From Piedraia hortae CBS 480.64 (Eukaryota): a stretch of DNA of 64,000 bases. Of this stretch, positions 37,298 to 58,434 are shown in pieces; within the stretch, counting starts at the first letter, position 1, and each line of letters begins with the position of its first letter. The position numbers and the translations under genes are program-made. The stretch is from contig MU005988.1 of assembly GCA_010093745.1 (NCBI GenBank), positions 62,001-126,000 on the forward strand, read 5' to 3'. The notes below the pieces were generated by a model. The model did not search any database and was not told the DNA's origin. It saw only the letters and a program-made list of their open reading frames with translations.

Positions 37298-37745
37298 GGA
37301 CGTGCCTAGGTTGCGGTGGACTCGTTGTTTCGAGTGTTCTAAAGCCAGGCAACGCAACGCAGGGAACCTATGTATCTGGCTGTGTGTGCTATCAAGTCAG
37401 CCTGATTGTGAGGATGGCGTCCACGTCAATTCACCTTGCACGAAGAATAAATATTACCTTTCGGACTTCACGCTTTCCGACCCTCTCCGGGACAGCTTGG
37501 CAACTCCCTTCCTTCTCAAAATTGTACACCGCATCCGGATGTGTATAGACCGATGCGCCTCGCCGTTGCGAGCTGGGCATCCAATTCCCTCTAGAGAGCA
37601 ACTCGTCGATCTGCATATCTGTTCAATCAGAACGACGGCATGGCTACGCATGCGCTCCGAACGATTTATCATGTACAGCCTATAAGAACACGGGGGCAAA
37701 GCAAGCTAAATTACAGTCTGCAACCATGCAGCAGGTAGTCTATCA

Positions 37746-40700
37746 TCACACACCGTCAACACCCAGCGCCACGGCTTTTGCGTAAGGCACCAGACAGCGT
37801 TGCAGGTCTCTCTGCTTGCCCAGGATGGTGACAACCTCCTTCATGAGGTCTGTCTTTTCCCAGCCCATGATGGCGTCGTTCTCTCCTCCGCTGTCGCGCT
37901 CTGAGCCCCACAGGCCCACCTCTTGGGGCATGAGGTTGTTCAGGAGCTCTTCAGCCTTCCCTCGCAGGCTCTCTGCCGCCAAGCGCTTGGCATACATTAT
38001 CAAGTAGACCCTGAATTCCTGGCGCGCGCCAAGCATGCGGGCGGCGGCGAGGCGATTCTCAAGGTGGGCGATGCTGACCGAAGACTCGAAGTTTTCGTAG
38101 CCCTCGGCCGACAGGAGCTGCTTCACGGTGCGCTGCAAAAAGTACGCCCGTCCCCTTAGCAGGCTTTGTGAGGTGGTGCTTCGCTCGAGCAAGGGCAAGA
38201 TCCCGGCAGAAAGATTCTCCGGAGACAACTCGTCAAGGTACGAGGTCTCGGTGCCGGATGCGGCGCCCGATCCATTGCACTTGCGCAGCACAGAGGTGTC
38301 GGTGGTGTTCCAATACTGAGACCCGACGCTCCACCACGGCTCGCTCAGCTTCTGCCATGCGAGCATCGATGCGTTATAGGCGAAGCCGTCTCCGTTGCTC
38401 ATGGCTACGACAACCCTGCCGAGGGAATTCAACCGGGCGAAAAGGAGCGACGGGCCCGAGGTAAGGTGGTCTTGCTGGAGGGTCGCTGCCACGTTGAGGA
38501 CGGGCGCAAGAGATGCGGGCGGGTGCAGCGCCGCTTGCCTTTGCAGGTCCCACACATGGCAGGTTCCCACGGCGGTGACGGCCAAAAGGTACCACCCCCG
38601 ACAGTCCAGAATCACCGCTTGGGACTCTAGGACAAGACCGTTGAGCATGCGACGGCCCGCAGGGGTCCACGTGTGAAGGCTGCCATCATCGCAAGCTGCG
38701 GCCCAGAAGTTGCGATTGCCCGTCACAAGGAGGACGGGACGAGGGAGGAAGTCTGACCAGACGACTTGGGTCCGGCGCGTGACCGTCATGCGCGTGGGAG
38801 CGCGGTCGGAAGGACGACCGGTACGGCTGGGACCGGTGTCGTTACGGGCTTCTAGGACGATGGCGTCGGGATTGTCGCCTTCGCCATCGTTCTCCGGCAA
38901 GGGCTTGGTAGGGTCGAGCGGGCGAAGGATGACGTTGCGCACGCTGGGCACGGCAAGGCGCAGCTGGCTGAGGGGAAGAGCGGCATGGATCGAGGGCTTT
39001 GCCGAAGTCTCGGCCGTGCCAGGGAATGCGAGGCCTTCAGACGTGTTGGCCAGGATGGGAGCGGCGCCAGACTGTTGCATGTTTTGGGCTCTGCGTTCCG
39101 CCTGCTTGCGTTCCTCTGCCGTGTCGCCCTCGACTTCGGCGTATTTGCGTTTGTTGCCGAACAAGAGGGAGGTTACGCCGCCCTTGGGCAGACCTTCATA
39201 TGGCCTGCTGAGGTCCAGCACTTTGCCCATGGGTTCGTCCGACGACATTGCTGAAGACACAGAGGCCTGCAGTCTGGGCCGCGGCATGTTGGATTCGCCC
39301 TGGTCCGAGACGAGTACCGGCGCTATCCTCTTCTTGCCGTCCTTGGTGAACGTGACGCGGTTCTTCAGCTTCTCCACCCTTTCCTGCTGAGCGTCCTTGG
39401 GGGGTTCTTTGGGAGCGGCTTTGGGCGGCGTCTGGTCGTGTCCGTTGGTGATGGGTACGCTGTTAACGGTGTCGCTGATGGTCAAGGCCGCCCCGTCGCC
39501 CATGAGCTCGCCCATTTTGGTTTCTGCCACCTTCAGTTCGCCCTCCTTGCTGACGTCCTCCAGCCTCTGAGCGTCCGGTCCATCGACAATGCCCGCCCTC
39601 CTACCGGCTCCGAATTTCGTCAGCGCCTTTTCGTTTTCCGACTTTTCCGTGGGATAGCCCATCTCGCCCGCGTCAAACTGAATGGCGGCAATGGTCCCGT
39701 CGAGACTGGTAAGGTAGAGCACATCTCCTTCGGGACACCAGGCAAGGTCGCTGATGGACTTGGCTGCCAGCTCGCCCACGGTGACAAAAGGCCGAGGGAA
39801 GCTCGTGTTCCACACGCTCACCGTCTTATCCTGACCGGCACACGCGACGATGCTAACGGGCATGGGGTTGCCGCCGTTGGGGTCGGGCGGCTCCTTTAGG
39901 AAGAGACGAGGAGAAAAGGCACAAACCTCGACGGGGCCCTCGTGGCCGATCAGATTGATGTCACTGGCCCAGGTGCCCCGCGCAATGATCGCCACGGAGC
40001 TGACGGGGCCGTTGGTGGCGTTTGCAGCCGCAATGTGCGCGCCCTCCGGACTCCACGAACAGCGTCTAAAGTACGTCGTCAGCGGGCTGGCGTCGAACGG
40101 GTCCGTGATGGTTTTCTCCAGCGTGAAGTTGGACGTCTGGTCGTAGGCCGTGGCGTTTGGGGGCGGAGACGTGAACCTGTAGAGCCGGATGCTGCGGTCG
40201 TCGCTGGCCGTGGCAAAATACTTGTTGGCGGGATCAAACGTGACGCCCTTGACGTGACTCTGGTGCTGCGAGAGCGTCTTGAGTTTCTCGAAAGTGCTAC
40301 CCGACCACACAACCACCTTGCTGTCCAGCCCGACCGACACCAGGATGCTGCAGTCGCTGCTCCATCCGAGGTCCTGGACGTCGTTGTCGTGGCCAATTAG
40401 CCGCCGGAAGATGCGCCAGTTCTCGACCGCCGGCGTTTCGTTACTGCCAAAGGTCGAGTGGCCGGGCGCGCCCGGCTCCAGCGTGTAGACACATACTATC
40501 TTGTCGTCGGCACCAGATGCCAAGTATTTCCCATTGGCGCTGAACCGCACCGAGTGCACCGTGCCCGAGTGGTACGACAGCGATGCAAGCTGTCTCGGTT
40601 TGTCTCCGTCGTCAGAGTCAGATAGGATGGCTTCGGTCGACCATATGCGGACGTGACCATCGCCCGCGGCCGTCGCCAACCGTTTACCGTCAGGGGAAAC

Positions 40701-40772
40701 GTGGCAGCTGTAGGCTTCGTGGTCTTTCTTCTCTCCTCCATGAACCAGCCAGTGCGGCTTGACGAAACGCAT
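37746..40772 (-). CDS. HIR1: Histone chaperone HIRA/Hir1
   Basis: N-terminal WD40s (GHDNDVQDL, HQSHVKG, FRRCSWSP), B-motif TKDGKKRIAP, C-terminal SIAHLENRLAAA. Confidence 0.95.
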   Translation of the reverse strand: MRFVKPHWLVHGGEKKDHEAYSCHVSPDGKRLATAAGDGHVRIWSTEAILSDSDDGDKPRQLASLSYHSGTVHSVRFSANGKYLASGADDKIVCVYTLEPGAPGHSTFGSNETPAVENWRIFRRLIGHDNDVQDLGWSSDCSILVSVGLDSKVVVWSGSTFEKLKTLSQHQSHVKGVTFDPANKYFATASDDRSIRLYRFTSPPPNATAYDQTSNFTLEKTITDPFDASPLTTYFRRCSWSPEGAHIAAANATNGPVSSVAIIARGTWASDINLIGHEGPVEVCAFSPRLFLKEPPDPNGGNPMPVSIVACAGQDKTVSVWNTSFPRPFVTVGELAAKSISDLAWCPEGDVLYLTSLDGTIAAIQFDAGEMGYPTEKSENEKALTKFGAGRRAGIVDGPDAQRLEDVSKEGELKVAETKMGELMGDGAALTISDTVNSVPITNGHDQTPPKAAPKEPPKDAQQERVEKLKNRVTFTKDGKKRIAPVLVSDQGESNMPRPRLQASVSSAMSSDEPMGKVLDLSRPYEGLPKGGVTSLLFGNKRKYAEVEGDTAEERKQAERRAQNMQQSGAAPILANTSEGLAFPGTAETSAKPSIHAALPLSQLRLAVPSVRNVILRPLDPTKPLPENDGEGDNPDAIVLEARNDTGPSRTGRPSDRAPTRMTVTRRTQVVWSDFLPRPVLLVTGNRNFWAAACDDGSLHTWTPAGRRMLNGLVLESQAVILDCRGWYLLAVTAVGTCHVWDLQRQAALHPPASLAPVLNVAATLQQDHLTSGPSLLFARLNSLGRVVVAMSNGDGFAYNASMLAWQKLSEPWWSVGSQYWNTTDTSVLRKCNGSGAASGTETSYLDELSPENLSAGILPLLERSTTSQSLLRGRAYFLQRTVKQLLSAEGYENFESSVSIAHLENRLAAARMLGARQEFRVYLIMYAKRLAAESLRGKAEELLNNLMPQEVGLWGSERDSGGENDAIMGWEKTDLMKEVVTILGKQRDLQRCLVPYAKAVALGVDGV

Positions 40773-40890
40773 GGTGTGGGGACAGTCGCATTCCGCTCAG
40801 ACGACGGGCGATCGGTGAGGTGCACGTCAGATAGGGTTAGGATTGGCGCGAACGATCTAACGGGTGCGGGGGCGGGCCGCTCAATGACCG

Positions 40891-40891
<1 letters not shown>

Positions 40892-40921
<30 letters not shown>

Positions 40922-41003
40922 GCGTGAGGGGGGGGGGAGGGGGGCGGAAAGCCGGCGGGGGGGGGGGGGGGGGCCCGCGAAGGGGGGGGGGGGGGGGGGG
41001 GGG
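40892..41003 (+). repeat. G-homopolymer-rich tract
   Basis: Several long G runs between the P450 3' end and the HIR1 start. Confidence 0.85.
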
Positions 41004-41105
41004 AAGGGTGTAGTGGGTCTCTAATCGAGCTCTGTCCGTGCACGCGCGGCGCATTCCGCGTCGAGCAGGTGAAATAGGTACGGTGATGTGCAGTTTCTCT
41101 ACAGT

Positions 41106-43329: not shown

Positions 43330-44229
43330 TCACCTCCGCTGCTTCCTTTTCTTAAACAGAATAGGCGGAGCCGGCGGAGAGGTCTCTACTTTGACATTTT
43401 GTCTGTCTGCGACCGGAAACCCCTGCTCAGTATCATCATCTTCTCTTTTTATCACAACGCCACCCTCTTCCGTTTTCACTGGAAGCTCTGGATCCTCCTC
43501 CTTGACTTCCCCATCTTCAGTTTTTATCTTCTTCGTCGTAACCCCACTCAGCAATTCCTCCAAGTCTTCGTCCTCCTGCGAAGTCCACGTCCTACTACCT
43601 CTTATATCATTGTCCTCTTCTTCCAAGGCGTTTTCGTCCTCATCCCTCCTTCTCTTGCCCGAACTTGGCGTAAAGTCATCCCTTTCGCTCTCGTTCTTCA
43701 TCCGTTTCAAGAACGCAGCGACACCGCCCTGTGTTTCATCCTGTTCTCGATCTTGTACATTGCTCTCCGCCAAAGGCACTGATGGCTTCTGCTCAACAAA
43801 AGTTTGCGACACGACGCGCCATTGCCCCACGCCGGTAACATCGCCCAACAGTTCCTTTGGGACCTCCAACCCCATTGCCATCAACTGCTCGGCCTGCGCT
43901 TTTCTATGTTCCGCCATGGAAATCCTTGGCACCGGGGCCGCTCGCGGCGGCATTCGCGGCGGCGGCTGCGCAACCGCGCTGGAAGACGAAACCCTCACGG
44001 CGCCCGTCCCCCCAACCAGCCCATTAAGCCGATCGATCTCCCGCTTCGCAGCTTCCTTTTCCCGATCTTCCCTGACTTTGTCCTTGTGCAGCTTCCGCAG
44101 GTTCTTTTGGATGCTGTTCTGGTGCCGCGCCGAGGCTTCGTGATTTTTGCGCTCAATTCCAGTGTCGCGAACATAAATGGAGCAGAATTTGCACCAGTAT
44201 GATGGGGTGGATTTCCAGTGAGAGGCCAT
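43330..44229 (-). CDS. U1/matrin-type zinc finger protein (WBP4/FBP21-like N-terminus)
   Basis: MASHWKSTPSYWCKFC..HE...H zinc finger; basic C-terminal FKKRK. Confidence 0.8.
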   Translation of the reverse strand: MASHWKSTPSYWCKFCSIYVRDTGIERKNHEASARHQNSIQKNLRKLHKDKVREDREKEAAKREIDRLNGLVGGTGAVRVSSSSAVAQPPPRMPPRAAPVPRISMAEHRKAQAEQLMAMGLEVPKELLGDVTGVGQWRVVSQTFVEQKPSVPLAESNVQDREQDETQGGVAAFLKRMKNESERDDFTPSSGKRRRDEDENALEEEDNDIRGSRTWTSQEDEDLEELLSGVTTKKIKTEDGEVKEEDPELPVKTEEGGVVIKREDDDTEQGFPVADRQNVKVETSPPAPPILFKKRKQRR

Positions 44230-45892
44230 GACCTTGCTGTTTCGCTGGCGGAAGGGAGGGTTGGTCTCGCCCTTGTTTGCGCTAGGGAACGCTAGTGGTG
44301 CAAGAGGTTAGTGCGGGGTCGCAGGGTGGACCTGTCAGGAAGATGCGGGGAAGCTTCTCTGCATACATGACATCTCCGAAGTGAGATAAGGGATCCTTCT
44401 CAGGTTCCATCCAGTCATGTACTGACTCGCATCGAAATAGCGGGCGATTGGATCATCACGAGCTTCTTCCTCACGGCATCTGATTGAAGGATGTGTACCA
44501 CACTGGTCGAAAGGTTAACCTAATCGGCCAATCGAGTCGTGTGTCAATGCGTTTTCTCTTCAGCCCAATCCTGACAATGGCATGCAAGTCGCAGGTTCTG
44601 CCGACATGGTCCCATCGCCCGGCTGAAGAATTTAGCAGCAGGGTAGAATCGTACGCTGGGTGTGAAAAGGAAAGGGTGCTCAGTTTTGGCAGATCCCGAT
44701 GCGTGGCCGGAGCAGTTTCCTTAACGGGACGCCAACCACGCCATGTGAAACGTCCAGGGTCTTGCCACTACAGGGATGTTGCTTGTTTCATGCTATCCTA
44801 GATGGTTGCAAATGATACAAGGCTACTGGTCTTATCAGGTATCTACAAGGCTGAGATTGTTCCGCCCCCTCGTCTGGGTTCAAGAGAATGCTTCTCGAAG
44901 GTCCTAAAAACTGCATGAGGCAAGAGTTTGAGCCACGGCTGCAGTGTTCCAGAATATTCGAGGAACGAGACTCAGCCTGTCTTAATGCAACGCAGTATGC
45001 ATGGAGACGAATTCATCAACCGTCCGCCACGATTAAGCCCACGTCAGGCTGTACTGGGTGTGACGCCGTGAAGAACGGCGCCCGCAGCTTGGCACGATTA
45101 CTCCATTAGTGTTTCCGAAGAACGGGTGAATGATTCTGTAGCTTAGGGAATTAGTGATTAAACCCGTTTGTCCTGTTTGAAACCACCGCAGCTGACTTTA
45201 TCAGAGCAGATCGTGTTGCTATGCATTTGTGGAAGCTCAACCAGGCCATGTCAGCCTCATAGGTGAGTTCATGCACCTCTCGACCGGGGGGAAGGGAGGG
45301 GGGGCGGCGTTCGCGCCTCAGACTATAACTGAACATTTCACCTATGTGATGGTTCAGACAACGGGTGCACGCGTTAAAGTGCAAGGATTTATGCGGGGCC
45401 TGTGATCATCTTCCGAAGGTCCAAGAATCTGTCTATCGAGCAGACGGCGCCATTGCTCTTCGGACGAATGAATCTTCTAGTAAGGGCACCAAACAGAAGT
45501 GTCCTTGAGGGCATTTCCCGTAGCTCCGCCATAGCTGCTAAGCAGCGTACACAGCCACCGCTACTGGGCAGATATCAGTCAGAGCTTCATTAAATTGTTT
45601 CCAGGGGTTTGCATGAAGAGCCGGCGCTGTGCTGGCACAAGGCTGTAGACCTTCATCTGTTTCTGTCGACATTAAACGAAAAGGCATGACTGCTAAGGAC
45701 TTATATATTCCTGCTTCGTACTGCCACGTTCTCTTCTTTTTCCACATGTCTGGCTCCCGCTCCTCGGTTTTTATGCGGCATCCAACCGAACAATATATTC
45801 ACTCTAGACGTTTCTCAACAGTTATCCATCCTGACAATTTCCAACGAACTCTACAATCTCCAGGTGGGCTAGGCACGGATTACAACACAAGT

Positions 45893-46378
45893 ATGACAAC
45901 CAGCAGGATCATCAACGAGGCCAAGAATTGCGAGAGGCAAGAGAAGAAGCGACGACGCAACCGCTTGGCCCAGAGGAAGAGCCGCCAGCTGTGCAAGGCC
46001 AAGATCGCCGAAGGCGAACGCAACAAGGATCATGTCCAGAAGCTGCAGCCTGCACTCAAGGCCTGTGTGAAGAAACTGATCCAACACCACGTCAACCTCG
46101 ATCAGCAAACACTGTGGACCACTCCAACCCATGGACACGCGGAAATGCTTCTCCAACTCCCAGCCCAACCCTCGTCTGTTTTTCAGATGGAGGAAGTCCT
46201 CGCAGGGATCACAGCTCTGTGGGCAACGGAAGCGGACGTTACGGATCTTGAATTTCTTCTCGCCGCTGGAGGGTTCAACGTCGACCACAACTCCCCACCA
46301 CACTTGCCCTCTGCTGACTACACAGCAGAAGACTTTACCAACGGCCACATGACGCACTCTGACACAAGTTTCGAATGA
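45893..46378 (+). CDS. Short divergent bZIP-type protein
   Basis: EKKRRRNRLAQRKSRQ basic region followed by a weak coiled coil. Confidence 0.55.
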   Translation: MTTSRIINEAKNCERQEKKRRRNRLAQRKSRQLCKAKIAEGERNKDHVQKLQPALKACVKKLIQHHVNLDQQTLWTTPTHGHAEMLLQLPAQPSSVFQMEEVLAGITALWATEADVTDLEFLLAAGGFNVDHNSPPHLPSADYTAEDFTNGHMTHSDTSFE

Positions 46379-47140
46379 CGCGATGCTTCAAAAGAGGAGA
46401 GGTCTCCTCTCATGTGGCTGACCAGCCCCGATTTCAGGAGAAGTGTGCATGATAGGTAGCGTTGATTGTACTGTGATATGATTGTCTTTTCGACGTCTCC
46501 TCGTGACATTTTCCAGCAGGCTGGTCTAAGTTTAATTTCTGAACGGTAAGAGACGATCGCGCGAGAAAATACCTGCATGCAGTCTTGTAAGCCCTACTGC
46601 CGGGAGCAATCCTTCCGTTAGCCCGAACCCAAGAACTGGGCTTGCAGCGTTGCACATGGCATGCAAAGCTGCATGATTGCCAGTCAGACACGTGCAGTTA
46701 TGTACCTTACATGTGTGTCATCGTGTATGTAATGACAGATGACGATTGGTGAGTGAAGTGAAAACGTGCAGGTTGATACATGGCCATGAACAAAGTATGT
46801 ATTGCAGCGAAATTCATGAAAGCCTTTCAAATGCCCATTAATTACCGGCACAGTTGGTAAAAGCACGTGATACATCCCCGAAACGAGACACGTTTTACCG
46901 GCCCGGTCCATCCCGCTCTTGGCTTCCTCACGGAGATGAACTTGGTTCACAAGACAGCTCGCTGCCTACCAGTCAAAGTTTCAATTAGCCCTAGACCATT
47001 TGGACATGAAGTTCTGAATCTCGGTGGTTCTACGAAGGCACAGCCCATGTTCGCTAGGTGAGACCGTTGCAGGAATGTTTAGCTATCTGTGCGGTCTCGG
47101 AAAACCGTCGTACAAGACTATGGTGCACACTTGAGCTAGT

Positions 47141-48427
47141 CTACCAATCATCTAGCATATCAGGCGTGATGGCCCTCCAACGCTCAGGGATCCACAAGTC
47201 ATCCGTTTTGCAGAGATTCTCCATGGCACGGTCAATGTCCTTTTCCACCTCCGGCCCGTTGCCATGCCACATTGTTTCCAATGGTTCCAGGACCTTGCAC
47301 TCATCAATGAGATGGTTTCTCAGTTTATCGCTCATCAGTACAGTCATGCGCGAGATAGCATGAGCCGCGGCGCAGCGAACCTCCCAGGTCGAGTGCGACA
47401 GCAGCTCTACCAAATAACGGGGAAATTCGGAGCGGAACTTGATGCCGCCGCGCATGGCGCTGTGCATAGCATAGCAGATGTGCACAAGGACCTCTGGGTC
47501 TGGCGATATAATGAGGCGCGGGAAGTAGGCGAAAGCAGGACGAATTTTTTCCCAGTCAGGTTCGATGCCAAAGTATTCATAGTAACAGACGTTGCGGAAG
47601 AGGAGAGCCACCGCGCGCTGTGTCTCAATCGACGGAAGGAGGAGCAAATCTGAAAGGTTCGTTTTCGTGAGCACATTGGCCTCGATGACGGCATCACAAC
47701 AAGCCTTTCCGCCGCCAGATAGAACGGCTAGGATACAAATTGCACGTTGGCTGAGAACCGGCGCGGCGAGAATGAGATTCTCAAGCGCCGGAGCTGCACC
47801 GGCAGCAATCAGGTCCTCCTTTAACTCGGGGGCCATGAGGCTGATGATGGCAAGGGCCTTGAACTGGAGGACCTTGTTCGAAATCTTGATGAATTCAACC
47901 AGGCGTGGAATGGCACTTTTGGTCAGCGGGCGGCCCTCGCGCATGATTGGAAAAAGCTCGACAAGGGCCTGCAACTGGTCGTCCAGGTCGTTGGAGTAGA
48001 ATTCTGGTGGTGGCTTCAACTCCTTGACATTCCGGCCTACAGTAGTGCCCTGGTGCCCAGTGCCCTTGCCTTCTTCGGTGAACAGGCGTCCTGCAATGGA
48101 GTATGTTTTGGTGGGCTGGCCCCCTGTATTGGTGCATGCTTCGGTATACTGGGCTCCTAAACTGGTGCCTGCTTTGATAGACTGGCCCACTGCCCTGGTG
48201 CCTGCTTCAGTGACTTGGGCTGGCACTGTATCTTGGCCGCCTCCAGTGACATTACCTACGCCATGAACCTGGCATCCTTTAGTGCCCTTATCTACCTTGG
48301 GTCCGCCGCCATCTTCTGACATTTCCTAGAGCGGTCAGCATAACCCGGGGACACGAAGTCGTTGGCGCACTGATTGTCCTGCCTTGATGATATCCCCAAT
48401 GTAGTCGCTTGTATCAGTGGAGCTCAT
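47141..48427 (-). CDS. Highly divergent, truncated importin-alpha-like ARM-repeat protein, 2 exons
   Basis: IPRLVEFI..LQFKA, AGAAPAL, EPDWEKIRPAF..RLI.S.D.EVL..ICYA follow importin-alpha ARM2-5; exon 1 48371-48427 and a 45-nt intron (GTGCGC..GCTGAC..TAG) are in frame. Confidence 0.7.
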
Positions 48428-48963
48428 CTTGCTTTAAGGAGAGCAGAGAATGGGGCTCGCTGCCTGCAGCGTCGCTGCGTTATGGTAGGTACTTGTCCTT
48501 CTGCTAATGATGGACAGTGGCATTTGGCACAGGCAAGTGACGCTTGCAAACGTGTTCACATGTGTGTCGTTTATACTGTCGCAAAACAGAGCAACCACGC
48601 AGTGATCCTTGAATGGTGCATGTTGCGATTCGAAGAACATGTTGGTTCGTTGGTCTGAATCTTACCTTCTTGTCCTTGGGTGGAGAACACCGCACGGACA
48701 TAGGCCTGAAGGAAAATTCATATTCGCTCAGTTTGACTCGCGGGTAGTTGATCGCAGCATAGTCATTTGTCTGTGGTCTACAAGTGTTCCAACGAAGAAG
48801 AGGTTTTCTATGCTTCCAGAATCGAGACCGAGATTGGCTCGTCGAGGCTCACGCGCCAGTGGCGCCTTGGTATAGCCTTCTGTTGAAGCGCCGCAATGTT
48901 GATGGCAGTACTACACGCTAGTGACCAACGTCTGTACATCTGTCTGGGTATAATATGGTCGAC

Positions 48964-50724
48964 CTAACCAACGAAAGATCGTATCTTTCCCATAAGACCA
49001 GACTTCTTCTCTTTACCAAAATTTGCACCCTCTTCTTCATTCAAATCTATCCGACCAGTGTCTATGTCAGCAATTTCCGGCTTCACGAGCTTCGTTCGGT
49101 AAATCAATTTGTGGCCAATATACATGACCACAAAAAGCATCAGACTGATATAAGCGACGAAAAAATTGGACGTGTTCCAAGGTATGAAAGCGGTGAAGCC
49201 TTGGGTAAGTATGATTATGATGTTGAAGCCGATGCCATAGTATGTGAACCATGGCTGGTAGGGGGCAGTGTAGGGTAGTGTGTCGCGATCAATTCCGCGG
49301 GATTTGAGGATACGATGGAAGGCGAGATAGGATATCCCAACACACCCCCTGAGTAAGATTAGCATAGGCCCCGGTGCAGCGTCACAACCTACCAAGCAAT
49401 GAACCCCGAGACACCACTGATGCTGACTAGCCAGGTGAAAACTTTGCCCGCGTTATTGGACTCGTTCATGAACCCCAACAGGCCAACAGCTGCCGTAACG
49501 ATGACAGCCACGTACGGTACACCACCGCCCGTGGACTTTGTTAGGAACTGCGGTGCACAGTTTTCACCTGCGAGCCCAACGAGTATCCGCGATCCGCTGT
49601 AGACGTTGGAATTTGCCGATGAAAGCACAACGCTGAGCAGGACAGCGTTGATCAGGCCCGGCAGAGTGGAAACACCAGCCAGCTTGGCAGCAATGACAAA
49701 AGGCGAGGCCGAAGCATCTGACTTGCCGCTTAAAAGGTCGGGATTGTCATAGGGAATCAAGATTCCGATGAAGAAGATGCTCCCGACAAAGAAAAAGAGT
49801 ATTCGGTAAAATGTCTTCTTGATGGCAGACGGCACCGTTTTACGCGGATTGCACGTTTCACCCGCCGCAATGGCCACCAGTTCAGTACCTTGGTAAGAGA
49901 AACCAGCCTGGATAAGAACAGCCCAGAAGCCAACGAATTTGGCCAGGGAAACATCGTTTTTGACGAGATAGGGAGCAAAGGCGCCCGGGTGCCCCCAGTA
50001 ATGGAAGCCCAGATAACCCTGACGGCCAACGCCGGCATTGACGCAAATGGCGAAGATAAAGAATCCAGCAACAGCGATGACCTTTATCATCGCGAACCAG
50101 AACTCGATTTCCCCGTAAAAAGAGACGGGAAAGAGGTTGAGAATGAAGATGGCAACCCAAAAGCTGCCGATGAAGATACCAGAGTCCAACTCGGGTGCCC
50201 AATACTTGATTATCAGGCCCGAAGCCGTCAGTTCAACAGCAAAAGTAGTGGCCCACGAGAACCAATATATCCAGCCCATTGCGAAGCCCAATGAGGGATC
50301 GACAAAGCGCGCTGCATAAGCCGTGAAGGCTCCCGATATGGGAATGTACGTCGCCATCTCGCCTAGGACCACGTCAGCAAAGGACTTGAGACGGCTCAAG
50401 TCTACTGGATTTACCTAAAGAAACCATGACGCTATATACTAGCGTTCCGACAAAGGCGTACGCTATTAAGGCGCCGGCGGGCCCAGAGGAAGCCAGCGCG
50501 ACGGCGGACCCGATGAAGAGACCTGTACCAATCGTGCCACCAATGGCAATCATCTGCAAGTGTCGTGATTGCAGACGACGCTTGAGAGGCTTGCTTGTGT
50601 CCACGCCGACGGACGGCTGGCGCTCAATATCACCATACTCGTCGTTCATGGCATCTCCGTACATTCTCCGCGGTTTGGAGCCTGCGACAAGGACACCTTG
50701 CTCACCCTTCGTCGTAGTCTCCAT
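48964..50724 (-). CDS. Amino acid permease (YAT/APC family, Can1/Lyp1-like), 3 exons
   Basis: RHLQMIAIGGTIGTGLF, GEMATYIP, FSYQGTEL, SPFVIA, LPYTAPYQP. Confidence 0.93.
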
Positions 50725-51143
50725 TGGGATGAGTGGAGAAAAGATGTCGGGCGAGCCAAAACTGCATGGCGCAAACTGGCGACCAGATAGTCACCCAACC
50801 TCCACGGCAGATGACGCGGCTTTTCTGTCCCATCGTGCGATTCCGACACTGACAGTTGCTATCACGTACGATGATTACCAAAGTCCATGCTGTTCTGGCC
50901 GCACGCCATGACTCAACGGCAGCCGTTCAAAAGGCGTCGGGTTGCGGACAACTCTAACCCTAGAGAACTTGGTCAAATTTGCATTGTGTGGCGTTCCTTT
51001 GCATCATTTGGTGAAGAAGCATGGTGATAAGAATACAAACAACGGCAAGTTTAGCAAACGAAAGTCATTTTACCCGGGACACAGCCAACCCCGCGTCAGC
51101 AAAATACCGTAAGTTTCCTGAAGCTGCATAACCCCGACTTTCG

Positions 51144-51255
51144 GCCTGTACAGGCTGATACCCCACAAAATCACAGGCCTGTACAGGCAGCCACTTCTCC
51201 AATCCACATGGCTGTACTGGCCCGGAACTCAGTCTGTCCACAGGCCTGAACACGC
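51144..51255. repeat. Palindromic 12-mer array with 33-34-bp period
   Basis: GCCTGTACAGGC at 51144 and 51177, GGCTGTACTGGC at 51210, GCCTGAACACGC at 51244. Confidence 0.65.
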
Positions 51256-53879
51256 TGAAAATACGACCTGCTACAGGCTAGTTTCAAGATCCTTTATAGG
51301 GTCTTGCAGACCAGGGAATAACTTGTTGACCATTGCCTATACTCTGTATACTATGGCTATGCTAGGTTATTCAAGGCTAGCCAACCTGGCTGCCCCAGAA
51401 GAAGTTGTATTGCGGTCAAGGAGTCCAGCTCCCTGATGACCCTTACGCTTCCAGCCATATATGGAAATGTCGTCCTGAAGAATCAGGCCGCTGGGGAACA
51501 TCTAAAGTGTTCACTATACCAATGGTTGGGTCAGACTCACCGCGAGGACGGGGGCAACGCCTTATAGCAGGCGTCCCATTGCTCCAGAAGATCGGCATCG
51601 TCGATGCTGAAAATTTTTCATTTTCCAACGCTAGATATATATAGTCAGAAGAGAAGTAACACTAGTGAGAGTTCGCGATCCTACCCAGGTGGCCGCCGCA
51701 ATCGCCCTTTCAACGAAGACGTCCGCGGCGGCGACGGCGTTGCGGTAGTGGAGCGTCTTAGCCACCTTGAATAAGAGCCACATCCTTCGAAACGTTCTTG
51801 AGGCATTTCCTTAAGTCAAGTCTGATTTCAGGTTTGACCTGAGATAGTGCGCTCATTCCCGCCTACGAGGGGAGCTCCTCCAATACATGACAGGCAACCA
51901 GCTCTGCCTTCCAAAACTAGTAAGGTTCGAGTTCTTCGGGTCAGGAAAAGAGCTTATCACGAGAGCATGATTATCGCCCCATAGCTCCGCGCGAAACGGC
52001 TCCCAGAAAAGGATACGCCGCATGGCATTGCGACCGACCTATAGTGCAATTTCAGTCATGCCCTCGCCCTGCAGTCATGACAGGGCAGCCCTCACATCAT
52101 GGAAGATGGCGATTATGCGTTGCCCTTGGGCTTGCTTCTCCAAGGAGGTAAGCCGTCCACACATTTCACACGTTTCTTGCAGCAACGTCAATAAGACGTG
52201 GGTGCTAAAGATGTCGCGAACGACTACTGGCTGCTAATAGGATGTCAGCTGTGTCGCCCTTCCTCTGTCACCGGCAGTAAGGGCGTGTTTCCGCAAGGTG
52301 CTCAAACAGAGCTGGACTTTCGAAATTGGTCGCTCAGGCAAGGCCAACGGCCTGTCCTATCGTCAAGGGCTCCTCGCCAAGCCGAGCTGGCAAAGCTGGG
52401 TTACTAATTGTTGATCGGCTATGTGGCAATGGTGCAAATAGTGGATTCTCAGGAAGAATCGCCGGTGGCTGTGAATGCTGCGAAAGCTCTTCTGCAAGAG
52501 TTCTGGGAAGCAATGACCTACCAGTGATCGAGGGAAGTGCCCTGCAAACGTGGCGGTGTTGGTATCGCCAGAATTTACAGAGGTAGCTCTGGAAAACATG
52601 TCGGAGTATGGATCACGTTCGCCTGCTGTGGAAACAGCGGCTGAGGCTACGGCGTTTGGGACAGTAGATGGCAGACTGGAGGGTCTGGGAGAAGCTGTGA
52701 CAGTGACAGCTGTGGGGGCCGTCGAAGGAACGTTGAAGGGTCGACAGTGTGATTTGCAGAAGAGGTGCAGGTGAGTGAATGACCGACGGAGCAGTTGGGA
52801 CGGGGGGTGGGCGCATCCCCAGGTCTGCATCTGTTCGGCCGGGTTGTGGCTCGCGATTGTGTACACCTAGAAAAGAGAGCAGCTCAGCTCCCACATTGGT
52901 CGCGTTGTCATTGTCCCTACTTGCGAAAACGCACTCAGTAACACAACTAGCATGCGGAGGACGGGTGAATTGCGCACCCAGGATTATGGCGCGTGCGCTT
53001 CAGACTTGGTGTCAGCCTCGCTGGTGTTTGCGATCGGAAGCGGGAATGTTGCGATATATGCCAAAATGCGGTCTCGCACACATGACGCCCGTACGCCACC
53101 ATCTCTGGGTGCCTTGCGCTTGCCTCTCTTGCCATCTCGTTCAGGAACTTTAGTGCGTCGCGTCGCGCGAGGTCCCGTCTTGACCGAGGTTTACCCGCCA
53201 CACAAAAGCTTCCAGAAGCTTTCCCGTGCCTTCCTAACCTGGACGAACTATCACAAAGAGTATATAATTGGTCCTGGACCCAAAAACCTATCGAAAGCTT
53301 TTTATCTAGTGTTTGGCTTTGCCGCTTGAGATTCGTTGGCCCATCGTGAACAGGCAACTTCGACCTGTAAAGCCCTTGACAGTAACTTAGTTGTAAGATG
53401 GACAACTTACGATGCCTCTTGTGTCATTCCTATGGAAACTCTACCAGAGTTATGGCGATCACATCATCAAAAGGTGCCCATTTTCTCACCCCAAGACACC
53501 AATCGATAAGAAGAACCCTAGAAAGAACAGATCCAGTCAGGTATCGGCATGTCGATGAGTGAGAAGGATCGATGAACGCCGAAGAGTGCATGGAGACCGT
53601 CAGGTAGGCTAGAGCCACGGACCGAATAAACCTGTTGTTGCAGGCAACAACCCAGGCCGCCAACTCGGTTAATCAGGCACCTTCGTGGGGCATCAACCCG
53701 GCAATAGATGACGATGATGCCATGGAGTTTGGTGCACAATATGTGGCGGACAACCCGCCATCAGATCAGTCCATGGGCTGTGAGACCAACAGTAACTTCG
53801 AGGATATTCAGGACGAGTATGACTGGGGATCCGAAACAGAGTCGCATGCAAGTCAAAATGATGGCCATGTTAATGGTAG

Positions 53880-56040
53880 ATGAATGTGAGTTTGCACAGT
53901 CTTGGCCCAACAGACAACCCGCTTAATGGTCCATCAGACATGGAAATGATGGATGAAACACACGCGGAAGCCGAAAATTCTTCAATATTTGCACCGCCAG
54001 ATCCACTGGTAATCCAGGACCGCCGAACCCAAGGCATCCTTTCAACTCGGATAAGGATGGCCTTTTGTTCACATATTACCACTCGTCCACTCAGCCAATA
54101 AGTGACTCACAGGCCAAGGCATTGCTCACCCTTATTAAAAAGTTTGCCACCATTTCCCATCCGAGTGTATTTTCCTTAAAACGGCTCAAGAAGTATCGCA
54201 ACAAAATCCCCAAGTCGAGAGCGATACGCCGTGAGAACGAGCACAAAGGGTCATTTTACCAAGTGAGCATCTTGGACGCCATCCCGTATGCAAGTCAACA
54301 AGAAGCTGGAGAAGATGAATCAGTGCCCAGAAGTCATCTTACGGAGTAGGCTGACCTGCTGCATGTTGAAAAGAGACCAAATAGTTGTTCAGAACTTTGG
54401 CATGGCCGTAAATGGCGTTGGGAGCTTCGGATGCAGCGACCAATGGAGCCACTGAGGATTAATGAGTCACACGTCAACATTTGGGTTGGTGATGTTTTGA
54501 AACTTGTGCCAAATAGCCAGACCGAGCGTGCCCTGTTCTACGGGGTTGAGACTCGTACCTGCAGTACTCGCACCATTCACATGATACGTGCTCTTCCGTT
54601 GATATTGCTTCCCGACTCTTCATCCTCCACGAGACCCACTTTTCTCATTCAAACCTCAAATGACATGGCAGAAGCGAATGAGGAGACAGCTATCTTCTTG
54701 CAGGACGAACAGATCCTGGCTTCGATGGCGATGGAGGATGTTCAATTCGCCGCCGAGGACGGGGAGCCGTTGTCAGACGACTTCAGAGCATTTCTTAGAA
54801 CTCCTCATCCTGCCAGGCACATAATACAAAGCCTGGCTCTTCAGATATATCAGGCTAACATCAATATCTGGAATGATGGCGTGAGCGCGGTGCGAAGTAA
54901 GAAATGAAGTCCTCTCGAGGTTTAGACTACTAGCCTGGCATGCGTGCCACGTAAGGTACGCATGAGATTCTCCAGTCACGGTCTTTATGCCTGCGGCAAA
55001 CCATGCTAACAACTGGGCCCTTTCAGGCAAACTTCCACCCTTCAGCAAATCTCTTTGTGGCCGTAGGTCCAAAAATGAAAGCTATGAGTATGCTTTGTGG
55101 CTTAATTTCAGAGCTGGCACGCCTACAACGGGGCGTCAAAGCCTTCGACCCGGTGAATAAGGGGATGGTCATCATATCTGGATGTGTTTGTATCATTCTC
55201 GGGGACAACCTGGCCGTTGCTGACCTGTGCTCACACATTTGGACCGGTACACACCCCTGACGGCAATGTTTTTGGTGCTCCTTGACAGCCACAAGAGGAG
55301 AGGACATGGCTGATGTTTCGCGGCCCCGAGTGCTGCGGCACACGAAGGGACTTACGGCGCAGGAAGCCAGACTTGTTAGTATTAGGCATACTCTAACGGA
55401 GCTCTATGGCCTTGAAGGTTTTGATGTCCATCAGGACTTCTCGTATGAGATACTTCATTCACTCCTTCTGGGGGTGGTAAAGTATCTCAGGCAGGACACG
55501 CTAAACCTCGCTGTGGTTGGTGATCACCTTTGGGAGCTCGCTTTGTGCTTTGACGCGGGCAATAAGGATGGTTTCTCCAGCTATCTCTTTCCGAGGCAAA
55601 TGTAAAACTGGAACAAGTCATTTACGGGAGGTGACTTCTGTAGCCTGATACAGACCCTGCCATCAACCATGATCGCATACTTTTCGCCTCTGGAGAGGTC
55701 CGAGGATGTTAAGAGTCTGCTGCACGCGTGGTGCGCTGCAGCGAATGCCATGACCCTCCTTTACGTGAGCCACGTAGGAGACCTTGACCAATGATGCGAA
55801 GAGCTTCAGGAGGTTCCTACCGAGCTGATCAAGACATGGTCTTACATCTGGTCATTTGAGACCATCCGGGAAAGGACCAAACTGCATCAACTCTTCCATG
55901 TCCCGGAAATGCCTCGTAGGCATGTCCCAGCAATCGGTGGCATAACTCATATGCAGGAAGCAGGCAACGTGTTCGAGCACAATACGCACACACCAATAAG
56001 TAAGCGGTGTCGCTCGATATCAGCAGTAAGAACGCCGTAA
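53880..56040 (+). pseudogene. Decayed DNA transposase, CMC/EnSpm-Plavaka-related
   Basis: Ordered motifs ELWHGRKWR, IWNDGVSAVRSKK*, GDNLAVADLCSH, GFDVHQDFSYEILHSLLLGVVKYL, KLHQLFHV, HTNK*AVSLDI, with stops and frameshifts. Confidence 0.7.
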
Positions 56041-57391
56041 CTTCCGCCATGCACTACATCGCAGAAGATGGATATTGGTGTCTCCAGCAACGGTACATGA
56101 CGCATCCTGACTCTAGAATAGTACAACTCTACTAAGAGCCGTTCATGCGCAGATTGCTTGATTTGCCAGACAATCCTGAGCAGTATTAGGCAACAGAAGG
56201 CATGAATAGCCAATTTTCGGGCCCAACCCAAGCAGTGCATGACGACTACGTAGTAAAATATGGCCTGGAATAGGCACGCGGAGATTATCGTCAATTTTCT
56301 AAAAGCGCTGGGCCCATTCCCTACGCTGTTCGCTCTTTTGTGCAATGCACACATAGCAATACTGTGTGCCGGGTAGAGGCGCTGCTGCGAACAGGCAGGG
56401 CTCCGAGACGTGCAATGGCATGGGTCGACGAGTATTGCTTGGCCAGTCCTCGCAACGAGTCCGGAAAATTCTGTGCGTGGTGGAAATCCCTTTGCTGGCG
56501 CCAAGAGGCACACACACACCGTCATCCAAATACAGGAGATTGCCCGTGTCATTAGTGCGCGACACCTTTGCCATGCAGGATGTGGCATGGTAACAAGTCC
56601 ATTCGCATTCCGGCGTGACAGGGAGGATGTTGGGGACAAGTCTGGCAGCATGCACCTGAAGATGACTCAAGCCGATACATGGTGAACACACATATGCTCA
56701 GGTTTCGTGTGTAGTTTTGATGAGTGCTTGCATAAATTCCACGATGCAGTCCATAATCGAGCGATGTAGTAACAACGTTATCAGGTGCGGAGTTGAAGCC
56801 GTTCAAGTAAATTTCCTTAGGCGAAGTGCTATTCAAATCCTAATGCGTCTTCAGGCTGCCGCAGTTTGAAACCCTAATGACCCCGCAGTCTGCACGGTTA
56901 GGTAACGAGACTCCCGGACCAGTTCATTACTTCATAGCGGACTCAACCCGACATCGAGCTCCGAGTGCTGAACACAACCATATACCATTGCAACACCGAT
57001 TAGTTATGTGAAGCGAATGCCAAAATCGTCAATAGACGAACAGCTCTCATTGTCATACATGCCTGTCCCAACAATGTCGGGCAGGGCAGTCGCTGAGGTT
57101 ATGAGCGTGCAAAGCCAAACTGTTATTATTGTGAGTAGAGGTGTACCAGTATGCATGCAAGTCTCTACGGAAAACTAGTTGACGCGTCAAGTCGAGAGCC
57201 GAGCACCGATTACTAATTATGCGCGTAATATACCGCATATTCGCAACACAAACTCCTCAGTAATGTGATCCAACGCAAAGGACATAAGATGCTTTGGAGC
57301 ATAGGGAGAGGAGCGGGGAGAGGTAATGGATGATTACAGCAATGTCAATTCAGCTCGGAACGGGTCCGACGGTCGTCCAAATGCTACAGAC

Positions 57392-57535
57392 TGTTGTGCA
57401 GGTCGCCGCGGAGCGATCCGCAGGTGCTGACCCACACCCCTAACCAGGGTTCGTGCACTTTTAGAATTTTCTTAGGTAGCTCTAGATACGCGTGTATACG
57501 GACATGCCTGCGAGGTGCCGCTGCTTATTAGAACA
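57392..57535 (-). mobile_element. Solo-LTR-like family copy 3 (144 bp, uninterrupted)
   Basis: Reverse complement TGTTCTAATAAGCAGCGGCACC...GCGACCTGCACAACA aligns with copy 2; no TSD. Confidence 0.8.
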
Positions 57536-57788: not shown

Positions 57789-58434
57789 TCAGCTAAAGTC
57801 CATCTTCCACAGTCCATCCCCGAGATAATGACCATTGTCAATGGCGACACCCTTTTTCTTTTCCTTCATTTCACTTGTCCCCATCCTCAGCACTCCCACT
57901 AGGCAAGCGTTTTCTTTGCCCTCGGCATCCACAACCACAATCTGCCCCGCATCTAGATCCTTGCCGTCGTTGCCGTAAACATCATCATTTTGGTTGGAAT
58001 TGGGCAGCCTCCCCCCGGGGCTGGTGAGCCCGGGAACCATCAGCGTTGCGCCGGAGAGGACGAATCGGATGGCACCGCGATCGATACGCACTTTTTGAAA
58101 GGCCCAGGGAAATTTGTGCACCGTCTTGAGGTGGGGCAGGAGAAGCTCCGTCTTGGTGCCGGGCTCTGCGTAGCTGTAGAAGAGGCCCTCGCCGTCGAGG
58201 GTGTAGACGGTCACTCGCTCCGCTGGGATCTTGACCACGTCGACTTGGGACCTTTTGGGCAGCAAATCGTCGAGATGTGGCTCGAGGAGGGGGTAAGTCT
58301 CTGCTAGGCGGGCTCGCAAAGAGCGCTGTGCAGAAGACTTGAGCTTTGTTTTTGGGCCGGGTGTGGGACTACGTCTGGTCAGTTTCCCGGACGGTTATAG
58401 GGGCTTAGGGGAGGACGAACTCCTTTTTGAACAT
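57789..58434 (-). CDS. TMA20: Translation machinery-associated protein 20 (MCT-1, PUA domain), 2 exons
   Basis: MFKK + intron + KLKSSAQRSLR; IDRGAIRFVLSGATLMVPGLTSPGG; HYLGDGLW. Confidence 0.92.

Follow-up and report, generated by a model that had tools for sequence, protein, structure and literature searches.

We describe a two-exon gene of Piedraia hortae CBS 480.64 whose product we regard, giving this reading about even weight, as an expressed importin-alpha derivative restricted to this species, devoid of the import-adaptor machinery and kept as a folded armadillo (ARM) scaffold with a remodelled groove. The gene, delineated from its reading frames and their translation, occupies positions 47141-48427 on the minus strand of the window, i.e. 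the whole 64,000-nt stretch of DNA that was analysed (GCA_010093745.1, contig MU005988.1, positions 62,001-126,000 of the forward strand); all coordinates below are those of the window.

An intact, spliced gene among intact neighbors

Exon 1 (48371-48427, minus strand) comprises 19 codons, MSSTDTSDYIGDIIKAGQS, which are the N-terminus of the NCBI model; its start ATG (48427-48425) has an A at position -3 and is preceded, at a distance of three codons, by an in-frame TAA. The intron (48326-48370, minus strand) is 45 nt long, reads GT..AG on the gene strand and harbors a branch-like site, GCTGAC, 13 nt before the 3′ splice site. Exon 2 (47141-48325, minus strand) is open over 394 codons and ends with a TAG stop (47141-47143). 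Joining the two exons yields a 413-amino acid product identical to NCBI KAF2859824.1 / UniRef A0A6A7BX87, the former bearing the database name 'ARM repeat-containing protein [Piedraia hortae CBS 480.64]'. All 45 bases of the intron are skipped exactly in one public contig (4014 letters, 0 mismatches). This contig belongs to a single run, X1, whose RNA nature is only a guess, and it may stem from the same data as those behind the public gene model. It partly covers the likely 3′ UTR (46900-47140, minus strand), reaching about 59 letters past the gene, and continues into the upstream amino-acid permease gene, so that it demonstrates neither a promoter of the gene's own nor a separate mRNA. With its frame open and its intron removed in a public contig, the gene is thus intact and spliced, as the initial annotation had it.

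The same annotation placed the gene in an island of decayed neighbors, a description that was not supported. The amino-acid permease gene (48964-50790), located 537 nt upstream, and the other immediate neighbors (zf-U1, P450, HIR1 and F-box) all have intact-looking Pfam matches, and it is only further along, at ~50.9-57.5 kb, that no recognizable gene was found.

The ARM region is related to importin-alpha

Residues ~120-395 (47198-48025, minus strand) form an ARM domain of seven armadillo repeats, the H3 helices of which (ARM1 to ARM7) correspond to residues 133-148, 170-183, 208-221, 252-266, 296-311, 333-349 and 377-391. Sequence comparison shows that the ARM region (~121-395) and importin-alpha ARM1-7 are homologous and run collinearly. 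The top solved match in a phmmer search of the PDB was Neurospora crassa importin-alpha (4rxh_B; E 4.5e-17, 65 bits, residues 128-390), and the best 60 of 78 matches were all importin-alphas or designed ARM proteins. In an exhaustive database search, 12 of the 20 top matches carried an IBB domain, an Arm_3 domain or both, and eight carried neither; seven of the matches that were looked up were named importin or karyopherin alpha, their sources being fungi and animals as well as a plant, an oomycete and Plasmodium. Fungal importin-alphas reached bit scores of 60-76, and tblastn searches with four importin-alphas hit the gene at E values of 1e-17 to 6e-21, identity to any importin-alpha being about 25%. 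The inter-repeat spacing matches that of importin-alpha across the seven repeats, and importin-specific stretches are recognizable outside the repeat consensus (EPDWEKIRPAF vs QPDWNTIAPAL, DPEVLVHICYA vs DDEVLIDACWA and FPRYLVELLSH vs IPRRLVELLMH in importin-alpha). The PDB match, the database matches, the bit scores and the tree described below all place the ARM core nearer importin-alpha than other ARM families, and the descent from importin-alpha proposed at the outset is thereby upheld.

An AlphaFold2 (AF2) model contains about seven repeats and reaches a pLDDT of at least 90 at 200 residues, and Foldseek matched it with a probability of 1.00 to ARM structures, designed ARM proteins scoring as well as importins; since an importin-alpha alignment went into building the model, neither its fold nor these matches are independent of the homology claim. 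A single-sequence model from the Atlas (pTM 0.66) likewise adopts an ARM solenoid fold, and the clusters that it matched first were importin-alphas (TM 0.63). In the predicted models, tandem three-helix ARM repeats are arranged as the right-handed superhelix of the armadillo-repeat superfamily. Pfam scores were under the curated cut-offs for both Arm (16.3 vs 20.6 bits) and HEAT (21.8 vs 23.5 bits).

Distribution and phylogenetic placement

No orthologue was found among 1.84 billion representative proteins, of which only the protein itself matched at E < 1e-11; the next match in this exhaustive search had an E value of 1e-11 and 29% identity, and a word-indexed search returned the protein itself as sole match. 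In the tree, the protein was placed in the ascomycete importin-alpha clade, at the base of Ascomycota, with support of 90/99 and a long-branch caveat, its branch being saturated at the ceiling of the program (10 vs a median of 0.13). Terminal branches of ascomycete importin-alpha orthologues measure ~0.02-0.4 substitutions per site. A forced grouping with seven Dothideomycete importin-alphas cost 0.39 log-likelihood units and was not rejected (p-AU 0.22). With both placements tenable, the origin cannot be called either recent or old. The saturated branch also fits drift under little constraint. A P. hortae entry was absent from the best 120 of 6291 importin-alpha matches obtained with Geotrichum SRP1 as the query (E ≤ 1e-100), a result that is uninformative as to the presence of a canonical copy. 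The term paralogue used in the initial annotation presupposes such a copy. No fungal IBB-less or divergent importin-alpha-like protein or paralogue was found among the literature titles listed, and published cases may exist.

Loss of the import-adaptor parts

The contacts of importin-alpha with importin-beta, NLSs, Cse1/CAS and Nup2/Nup50 reside in its IBB domain, its NLS-binding sites and its ARM8-10/Arm_3 region. The IBB domain (PF01749) was not found by Pfam, whether in the whole protein at E ≤ 1 or in its N-terminal 110 residues at E ≤ 10, and tblastn detected no IBB remnant upstream in any frame. At the other end, Arm_3 (PF16186) was not found in the protein by Pfam, and no remnant of ARM8-10 or Arm_3 was detected by tblastn downstream of the stop; all tblastn matches outside the gene's own reading frame had E values of at least 0.19. 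The alignment to 31 importin-alphas stops after the H3 helix of ARM7, leaving the query gapped at 64 conserved columns. The protein thus has neither an IBB domain nor the ten ARM repeats ending in Arm_3 of an import adaptor, and the absence of the former and the shortening of the repeat array were both correctly read in the initial annotation.

As described in the portion of PMC4474859 drawn upon here, the major NLS-binding site of N. crassa importin-alpha consists of W146, W188, W231, N150, N192 and N235, together with D196, which makes the P2 salt bridge, and the minor site (ARM6-8) of N319, N361, W357, W399 and E396. Equivalent positions in the P. hortae protein were assigned by motif order and spacing and are to be taken as putative. 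In the major site, no Trp stands in for W146 anywhere in residues 170-183, W188 and W231 would correspond to C216 and L260, N150 and N192 appear lost, N235 appears kept as N264, and the P2 residue D196 would be replaced by G224; none of the three Trp and one of the three Asn would thus remain. In the minor site, only N361 seems to be kept (as N389): N319 would be lost (R346 or T347 by alignment), W357 would correspond to R385, and W399 and E396 belong to ARM8, past the end of the protein. The motif replacements noted initially (QFKALAIISL for QFEAAWALTN, QRAICILAV for EQAVWALGN, RAVALLFRN for RNATWTLSN and ICYAMH for ACWAIS) are all translated and align to importin-alpha H3 helices. The accompanying claim that the NLS-binding W/N residues are gone is right for the Trp ladder, none of which is kept, and has to be amended for the named Asn, two out of five of which (N264 in ARM4 and N389 in ARM7) are retained under the above assignments. 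The net charge of ARM1-7 is -7, compared to -4 to -10 in canonical importin-alpha.

Constraint on the coding sequence

The reading frame of exon 2 would be expected to contain 15.5 stops by chance (probability of being open, 1.3e-7; 0 of 2000 shuffles open), and each of the other five frames of the interval carries 7-26 stops. GC3 is coding-like in the ARM part, at 0.65 vs 0.48-0.51 in flanking intergenic DNA, and all length differences relative to importin-alpha are in frame. Conservation was scored at the 142 columns that are at least 90% conserved in the 31 importin-alphas and align to residues 120-395. Hydrophobic residues occupy 61 of the 66 conserved hydrophobic columns (30 identical, 31 similar); retention elsewhere amounted to 10/48 polar, 6/18 Gly/Pro, 2/7 Asn and 0/3 Trp columns. 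The hydrophobic repeat core of the ARM region is kept. That 38 of the 48 conserved polar positions are changed could mean that a binding surface has been lost, not gained.

A novel N-terminal region and C-terminal tail

Together with exon 1, the exon-2 part of the N-terminal region (residues 20-119; 48026-48325, minus strand), which is Gly/Thr/Gln-rich and predicted to be disordered, brings the composition of the first 119 residues to 24 Gly and 17 Thr. The pLDDT of the AF2 model is below 50 for residues 1-94 and 105-114. No homologue of the region was found, all matches from the exhaustive search beginning at residue 106 or beyond, and neither the N-terminal 110 residues nor the C-terminal tail matched a Pfam family at E ≤ 10. 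Within the region lies a 33-nt tandem repeat (48116-48208; 2.8 copies, 73% matches), which encodes the 11-residue units GTRAVGQSIKA, GTSLGAQYTEA and CTNTGGQPTKT. An orphan, disordered, Gly/Thr-rich stretch of ~115 residues is thus found in place of the IBB domain, and owes part of its growth to an 11-residue unit duplicated in tandem. The C-terminal tail (residues 396-413, ending in LWIPERWRAITPDMLDDW; 47144-47197, minus strand) is Trp- and acid-rich, is predicted to form two short helices and is without counterpart in importin-alpha.

Possible roles of the protein

The loss of all known functional motifs, the lack of an orthologue in the databases searched, the saturated tree branch, the continuity of the spliced contig with the permease gene and the sub-threshold Arm and HEAT scores are in keeping with a functionless relic, that is, a partial importin-alpha duplicate which has lost its ends and binding residues and whose transcription persists, possibly as read-through of the permease gene, with a stop codon yet to come. 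We nevertheless judge this explanation unlikely. About 15 stops would be expected of a neutral sequence at ~25% identity, whereas the frame is open; the substitutions are non-random, hydrophobic positions having been kept and polar ones mostly not; GC3 is coding-like, length differences are in frame, and the single-sequence model still forms an ARM solenoid. That the protein might instead belong to another ARM family, owing its likeness to importin-alpha to the shared repeat consensus only, strikes us as scarcely credible. The eight top matches devoid of both IBB and Arm_3 and the equal Foldseek standing of designed ARM proteins would allow it, as would language-model features, which, with importins excluded, were nearest to ARMC8, Rap1GDS1 and SPAG6 clusters at chance-reachable scores of 0.92-0.93. 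Against it stand the collinearity of seven repeats with matching spacing, the importin-specific stretches outside the repeat consensus, the best solved match to a fungal importin-alpha with no other natural ARM family in the best 60 of 78, and the position of the protein in the ascomycete importin-alpha clade, long-branch caveat included.

The initial annotation further proposed a decoy. Such a protein would carry no cargo and would act on nuclear transport in a dominant-negative manner, by titrating a partner away from canonical importin-alpha; its case draws on the importin-alpha origin of the protein, on the canonical-like net charge of ARM1-7 and on the IBB-less importin-alpha duplicates of Drosophila, for which specialized roles are proposed by the authors in the excerpt of PMC8645118 cited here. 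A decoy, however, must keep the surface that it mimics, whereas the ladder Trp, three of the five named Asn, the P2 Asp, the IBB domain and ARM8-10/Arm_3 are all missing; the Drosophila copies, according to the same excerpt (PMC8645118), retain canonical ARM repeats. With all known importin-alpha partner surfaces lost or absent, the decoy proposal was not supported and we consider it improbable. We find it harder still to credit an importin-beta-independent carrier of non-classical cargo that would enter the nucleus alone. IBB-less importin-alphas active in nuclear transport have been reported in yeast and Drosophila (PMC8645118, citing earlier work, in the part relied upon), but the present protein has only seven repeats and is without the C-terminal region for Cse1/CAS export, so that no transport cycle is evident, and its cargo groove is remodelled.

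On our preferred reading of a retained ARM scaffold, importin-beta binding, canonical binding of classical basic NLSs and recycling by Cse1/CAS would be impossible for the protein, which would therefore act neither as an import adaptor nor as an NLS decoy. Its anatomy would point to a free-standing ARM scaffold as the most likely role. The concave H3 surface would be more hydrophobic in ARM2-4, where Ala/Leu, Cys and Leu take the place of Trp, and the remaining backbone-clamping Asn, N264 and N389, would allow an extended, non-basic peptide of some partner to be bound. Tether or regulatory functions may fall to the two ends of the protein, the N-terminus being disordered and the tail acidic and Trp-rich. 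More tentatively, the peptide groove may have been re-tooled in one fungal lineage: having shed its IBB domain, the three final repeats and the Trp ladder that binds cations, and having gained a disordered arm of 11-residue repeats, the protein would be a species-specific, non-transport scaffold for a new non-basic ligand. Few eukaryotic proteins are as conserved as importin-alpha, and a saturated yet folded copy would illustrate the reach of scaffold repurposing and provide a natural experiment separating the residues needed by the ARM fold from those needed by NLS binding. As long as neither a partner nor a phenotype has emerged, its practical value is small; the gene may be useful for marking the Piedraia lineage and as an example in studies of how orphan genes arise from old ones.

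Comparison with known systems

The protein shares ARM1-7, the hydrophobic core, the PDW loop and the VELL motif with canonical fungal importin-alpha (Srp1/Kap60, N. crassa 4RXH), and has a similar net charge. It differs from it in lacking the IBB domain, ARM8-10, Arm_3 and the ladder Trp, in the change of the P2 Asp to Gly, and in its new disordered N-terminus and tail. Designed ARM repeat proteins (dArmRP; PDB 5MFC, 6S9L), which gave the best Foldseek scores, likewise consist of a short ARM solenoid that stands alone, is similar in size and has no transport domain. Their entry titles indicate that the Trp/Asn ladder is retained and that (KR)n peptides are bound, whereas the ladder is not kept here; they are useful as a parallel to a peptide-binding groove that has been re-tooled. 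The Drosophila IBB-less duplicates alphaKap4, alphaKap5, alphaKap6 and alphaKap2A-H are, as presented in the excerpt of PMC8645118, lineage-restricted and in some cases fast-evolving. The P. hortae protein resembles them, as they are presented there, in being IBB-less, lineage-restricted and importin-alpha-derived, and would, if its groove was indeed re-tooled, be their fungal counterpart, carried further. Unlike these duplicates, which keep canonical armadillo repeats according to that excerpt, it has lost NLS-binding residues and three repeats, and its host is a fungus. Set beside the Drosophila duplicates, the ARM-coding part of the gene is, by our own observation, intronless, as in retrogenes.

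A spliced gene encodes the ARM protein

The gene for the importin-alpha-like ARM protein occupies 47141-48427 on the minus strand and comprises two exons. Exon 1 (48371-48427, minus) supplies 19 codons from an ATG that has A at -3 and is preceded by an in-frame TAA at a distance of three codons, and exon 2 (47141-48325, minus) stays open for 394 codons and ends in a stop; between them lies a 45-nt intron (48326-48370, minus) with GT..AG on the gene strand and a GCTGAC branch-like site. The joined 413-aa product is identical to KAF2859824.1 / UniRef A0A6A7BX87, generically annotated as 'ARM repeat-containing protein [Piedraia hortae CBS 480.64]', and the gene model of the initial annotation is therefore the public one. 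As to splicing, 96% of sampled words of 46900-48700 were present in one public sequencing run (X1), whose type on record is only 'RNA?', a guess. A single 4014-letter X1 contig covers 46900-48324 and 48370-48700 with 0 mismatches while skipping 45 bases; moving the cut by one position places the gap at exactly 48326-48370 (CT..AC on the plus strand). Because the genome carries and the contig misses precisely one GT..AG unit, we infer that the contig is cDNA-derived and that the intron is really removed. The claim of an intact, spliced gene was thus upheld by both the open exons and this contig. The X1 data may be the source of the public gene model. The contig continues for ~2200 letters into the same-strand, upstream amino-acid permease gene, and so documents neither a dedicated promoter nor a distinct mRNA for the ARM gene; since its depth figure is a whole-contig value, ARM-gene expression cannot be ranked from X1. 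Within 46900-50900 (minus strand), the contig is unbroken from the 3′ flank of the ARM gene over a 537-nt spacer into the permease gene (48964-50790), and read-through or overlapping transcripts of both genes are therefore possible.

Support for descent of the ARM core from a fungal importin-alpha

Pfam returned only sub-threshold repeats for the ARM protein (HEAT, 21.8 bits versus a cut-off of 23.5; Arm, 16.3 versus 20.6), with no match to IBB or to the C-terminal region Arm_3. In a search of all solved structures, the closest was Neurospora crassa importin-alpha (4rxh_B, E 4.5e-17; residues 128-390 of 413 aa against chain positions 37-309, or query 109-371 in exon-2 numbering), followed by importin-alphas of yeast, Candida glabrata, human and rice, the best 60 of 78 matches all being importin-alphas or designed armadillo proteins. 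The 4rxh_B alignment includes importin-alpha-specific stretches outside the repeat consensus (EPDWEKIRPAF versus QPDWNTIAPAL, DPEVLVHICYA versus DDEVLIDACWA and FPRYLVELLSH versus IPRRLVELLMH). When 1.84 billion representative proteins were searched exhaustively with HMMER, the protein itself came first and the next-best match stood at E 1e-11 (29% identity), with 68 matches at E<=0.001. IBB and/or Arm_3 were found in 12 of the top 20, the other 8 carrying only ARM/HEAT families; seven looked-up matches were source-named importin/karyopherin-alpha (Tieghemiomyces, Allomyces, Phytophthora, Spirodela, Plasmodium, fish, two turtles), while a Geotrichum match is a named SRP1 homologue and an Absidia match is unnamed. 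All matches start at query residue 106 or later, and the N-terminal region therefore matches nothing. A word-indexed search of 5.8 billion clusters returned the ARM protein alone, as a cluster of one member; thus, neither collection holds an orthologue or close paralogue. When four importin-alphas were compared to the whole window by tblastn, only the ARM gene was significant (E 1e-17 to 6e-21). The ARM core being closer to importin-alpha than to other ARM families in the searches run, the importin-alpha descent proposed initially found support in the 4rxh_B match and in the domains of the top 20.

A maximum-likelihood tree built from 33 rows, for which the tool warned of long branches, placed the ARM protein inside the ascomycete importin-alpha clade (support 90/99), its placement within being unresolved and no starred set including it; its end branch was at the program ceiling (10 changes per column versus a median of 0.13). 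A constraint grouping it with seven Dothideomycete importin-alphas (P. hortae is itself a dothideomycete fungus) cost 0.39 log-likelihood units and was not rejected (p-AU 0.22). Bit scores against fungal importin-alphas were flat (60-76), a mucoromycete ranking top and a dothideomycete second. These scores and the tree support descent from a fungal importin-alpha. The ARM-coding part is intronless, which would fit a retrocopy, as in fly genes. No P. hortae entry was among the best 120 of 6291 importin-alpha matches. The yeast Nadsonia fulvescens had two full-length matches to different proteins (P0142 and P0165, 538 and 541 aa); therefore, some ascomycetes at least hold two canonical copies.

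Loss of the IBB domain, NLS contacts and C-terminal repeats

The IBB domain binds importin-beta and auto-inhibits importin-alpha, whose C-terminal repeats are needed for Cse1/CAS export. Besides the missing Pfam match to IBB, tblastn with four importin-alphas over the whole window revealed no IBB, ARM8-10 or Arm_3 remnant in the flanks or other frames, bearing out the missing IBB and the shortened array described initially; seven repeats are present. According to a structural study of N. crassa importin-alpha (PMC4474859), W146, W188 and W231 make the lysine pockets of the major site, where the peptide backbone is held by N150, N192 and N235 and D196 provides the P2 salt bridge; at the minor site, backbone guidance falls to N319 and N361, and P2' is held by W357, W399 and E396. 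We assigned these residues to motifs by order and spacing in three alignments, and the correspondences below are thus an inferred mapping. In ARM2 (QFEAAWALTN to QFKALAIISL), Trp and Asn are both absent from 170-183, their exact pairing being alignment-dependent. ARM3 (EQAVWALGNIAGD to SQRAICILAVLSGG) has C216 for the Trp, V220 for the Asn and G224 for the Asp. Trp is replaced by L260 in ARM4 (RNATWTLSN to RAVALLFRN), by Y304 in ARM5 (ACWAIS to ICYAMH) and by R385 in ARM7 (EACWTISN to DIDRAMEN), and the Asn of ARM6 is gone (LRSVGN to AHAISR). ARM8-10, including W399 and E396, are absent. The reported loss of NLS-binding W/N residues therefore holds for all ladder Trp and for the Asn of ARM2, ARM3 and ARM6, but not for those of ARM4 (N264) and ARM7 (N389), which are retained. 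Every step of the classical import cycle would appear to be closed to the ARM protein.

The repeat core is preserved

Against 31 importin-alphas (fungi, animals, a plant, Plasmodium), we counted the columns that align to residues 120-395 and reach 90% conservation or more (n=142). Hydrophobic columns stay hydrophobic in 61 of 66 cases (30 identical, 31 similar), whereas 10/48 other polar, 6/18 Gly/Pro, 2/7 Asn and 0/3 Trp columns are kept. Substitutions thus fall mainly at polar positions, most of them on the surface or in contact with ligand, and the repeat core is preserved. Charge, reading frame and codon composition also point to constraint. The net charge of ARM1-7 is -7 (canonical importin-alpha range, -4 to -10). 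From base composition, 15.5 stops would be expected in the reading frame (P(open) 1.3e-7; 0/2000 shuffles open), and the five other frames hold 7-26. In the ARM part, GC is 0.60, 0.39 and 0.65 at the first, second and third codon positions; GC3 spans 0.53-0.76 in neighbouring genes, against a GC of 0.48-0.51 in the intergenic DNA on the flanks. The signature is weaker in the N-terminal part (GC3 0.52).

AlphaFold2, run on a 55-sequence alignment, predicted a confident solenoid at ~121-400 (200 residues at pLDDT >=90; pTM 0.73), with residues 1-94 and 105-114 at pLDDT <50. Helix order and alignments delineate seven repeats, followed by an 18-residue tail, ...LWIPERWRAITPDMLDDW. The top Foldseek matches were designed ARM proteins and fungal importin-alphas (probability 1.00), a result tied to the AlphaFold2 input alignment and hence not independent; an independent single-sequence ESM Atlas model (pTM 0.66) likewise came closest to importin-alpha clusters (TM 0.63). 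The N-terminal 119 residues contain 24 Gly and 17 Thr, and a 33-nt tandem repeat in this region (48116-48208; 2.8 copies, 73% matches) codes 11-residue units of the form GTxxxGQxxxA. Neither the N-terminal region nor the tail matched a Pfam family at E<=10.

Possible roles of the ARM protein

The ARM protein lacks four of the features that define functional importin-alphas and lies outside that family; we class it as a degenerate or neofunctionalised importin-alpha duplicate. The gene is a real, tidy case of extreme divergence in a highly conserved gene. According to one report (PMC8645118), Drosophila alphaKap4, 5, 6 and 2A-H are IBB-less, lineage-restricted importin-alpha duplicates that keep armadillo repeats of the canonical importin-alpha type, and importin-beta-independent, testis-specialised transport has been proposed for them. 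IBB loss and restricted range are common to both; unlike those duplicates, the P. hortae protein comes from a fungus and has also lost the NLS contacts and three of the repeats. No fungal IBB-less or divergent importin-alpha appeared among the titles listed by a literature search.

The protein is probably not an import adaptor. A decoy role was suggested by the initial annotation; as a decoy for NLSs or importin-beta, the protein would require the surfaces that are gone (IBB, ARM8-10 and basic-NLS contacts), and this role is in all likelihood to be rejected. An importin-alpha-derived ARM fold has been kept and carries a repeat-grown, disordered orphan N-terminus, in an open, spliced gene of one sequenced species only. 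There is about an even chance that the product is a free-standing ARM scaffold, with its fold under selection and its groove serving an extended non-basic peptide of a partner. The groove would be more hydrophobic in ARM2-4 and would retain two Asn clamps (N264, N389), so that such a peptide would be bound in it. The main alternative, which seems rather unlikely, is a relic that is transcribed, perhaps via read-through, and just not yet broken; against it stand a frame that is open despite saturating divergence and substitutions that differ between core and surface.

Genomic neighbourhood

On both sides of the ARM gene, neighbours look intact by Pfam: an F-box/LRR-like gene (35792-37396), HIR1/HIRA (37746-40796), a cytochrome P450 (41350-42980), a U1-type zinc-finger protein (43330-44307), the three-exon permease (profile positions 1-465 of 470) and a PUA/MCT-1-type gene (57789-58394). 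The proposed 'island of decay' therefore does not fit the immediate setting. Between 50.9 and 57.5 kb (~6.6 kb), 0/34 stop-to-stop frames of at least 75 codons had a believable Pfam match, and no gene was recognisable. In this stretch (50900-57500), plus-strand frames 53957-54349 and 54350-54907 form one reading frame with a single stop between; this may be the decayed neighbour meant initially, or chance. An open frame at 45617-46378 (plus; 253 codons) had no significant family; its basic stretch, ...RQEKKRRRNRLAQRKSRQ..., resembles a bZIP basic region by eye, with no bZIP hit in Pfam at E<=0.01. A GC-rich, low-complexity tract (40496-41024; GC 0.65 over 40001-41000) lies just upstream of HIR1 and codes long proline runs on one strand and glycine runs on the other.
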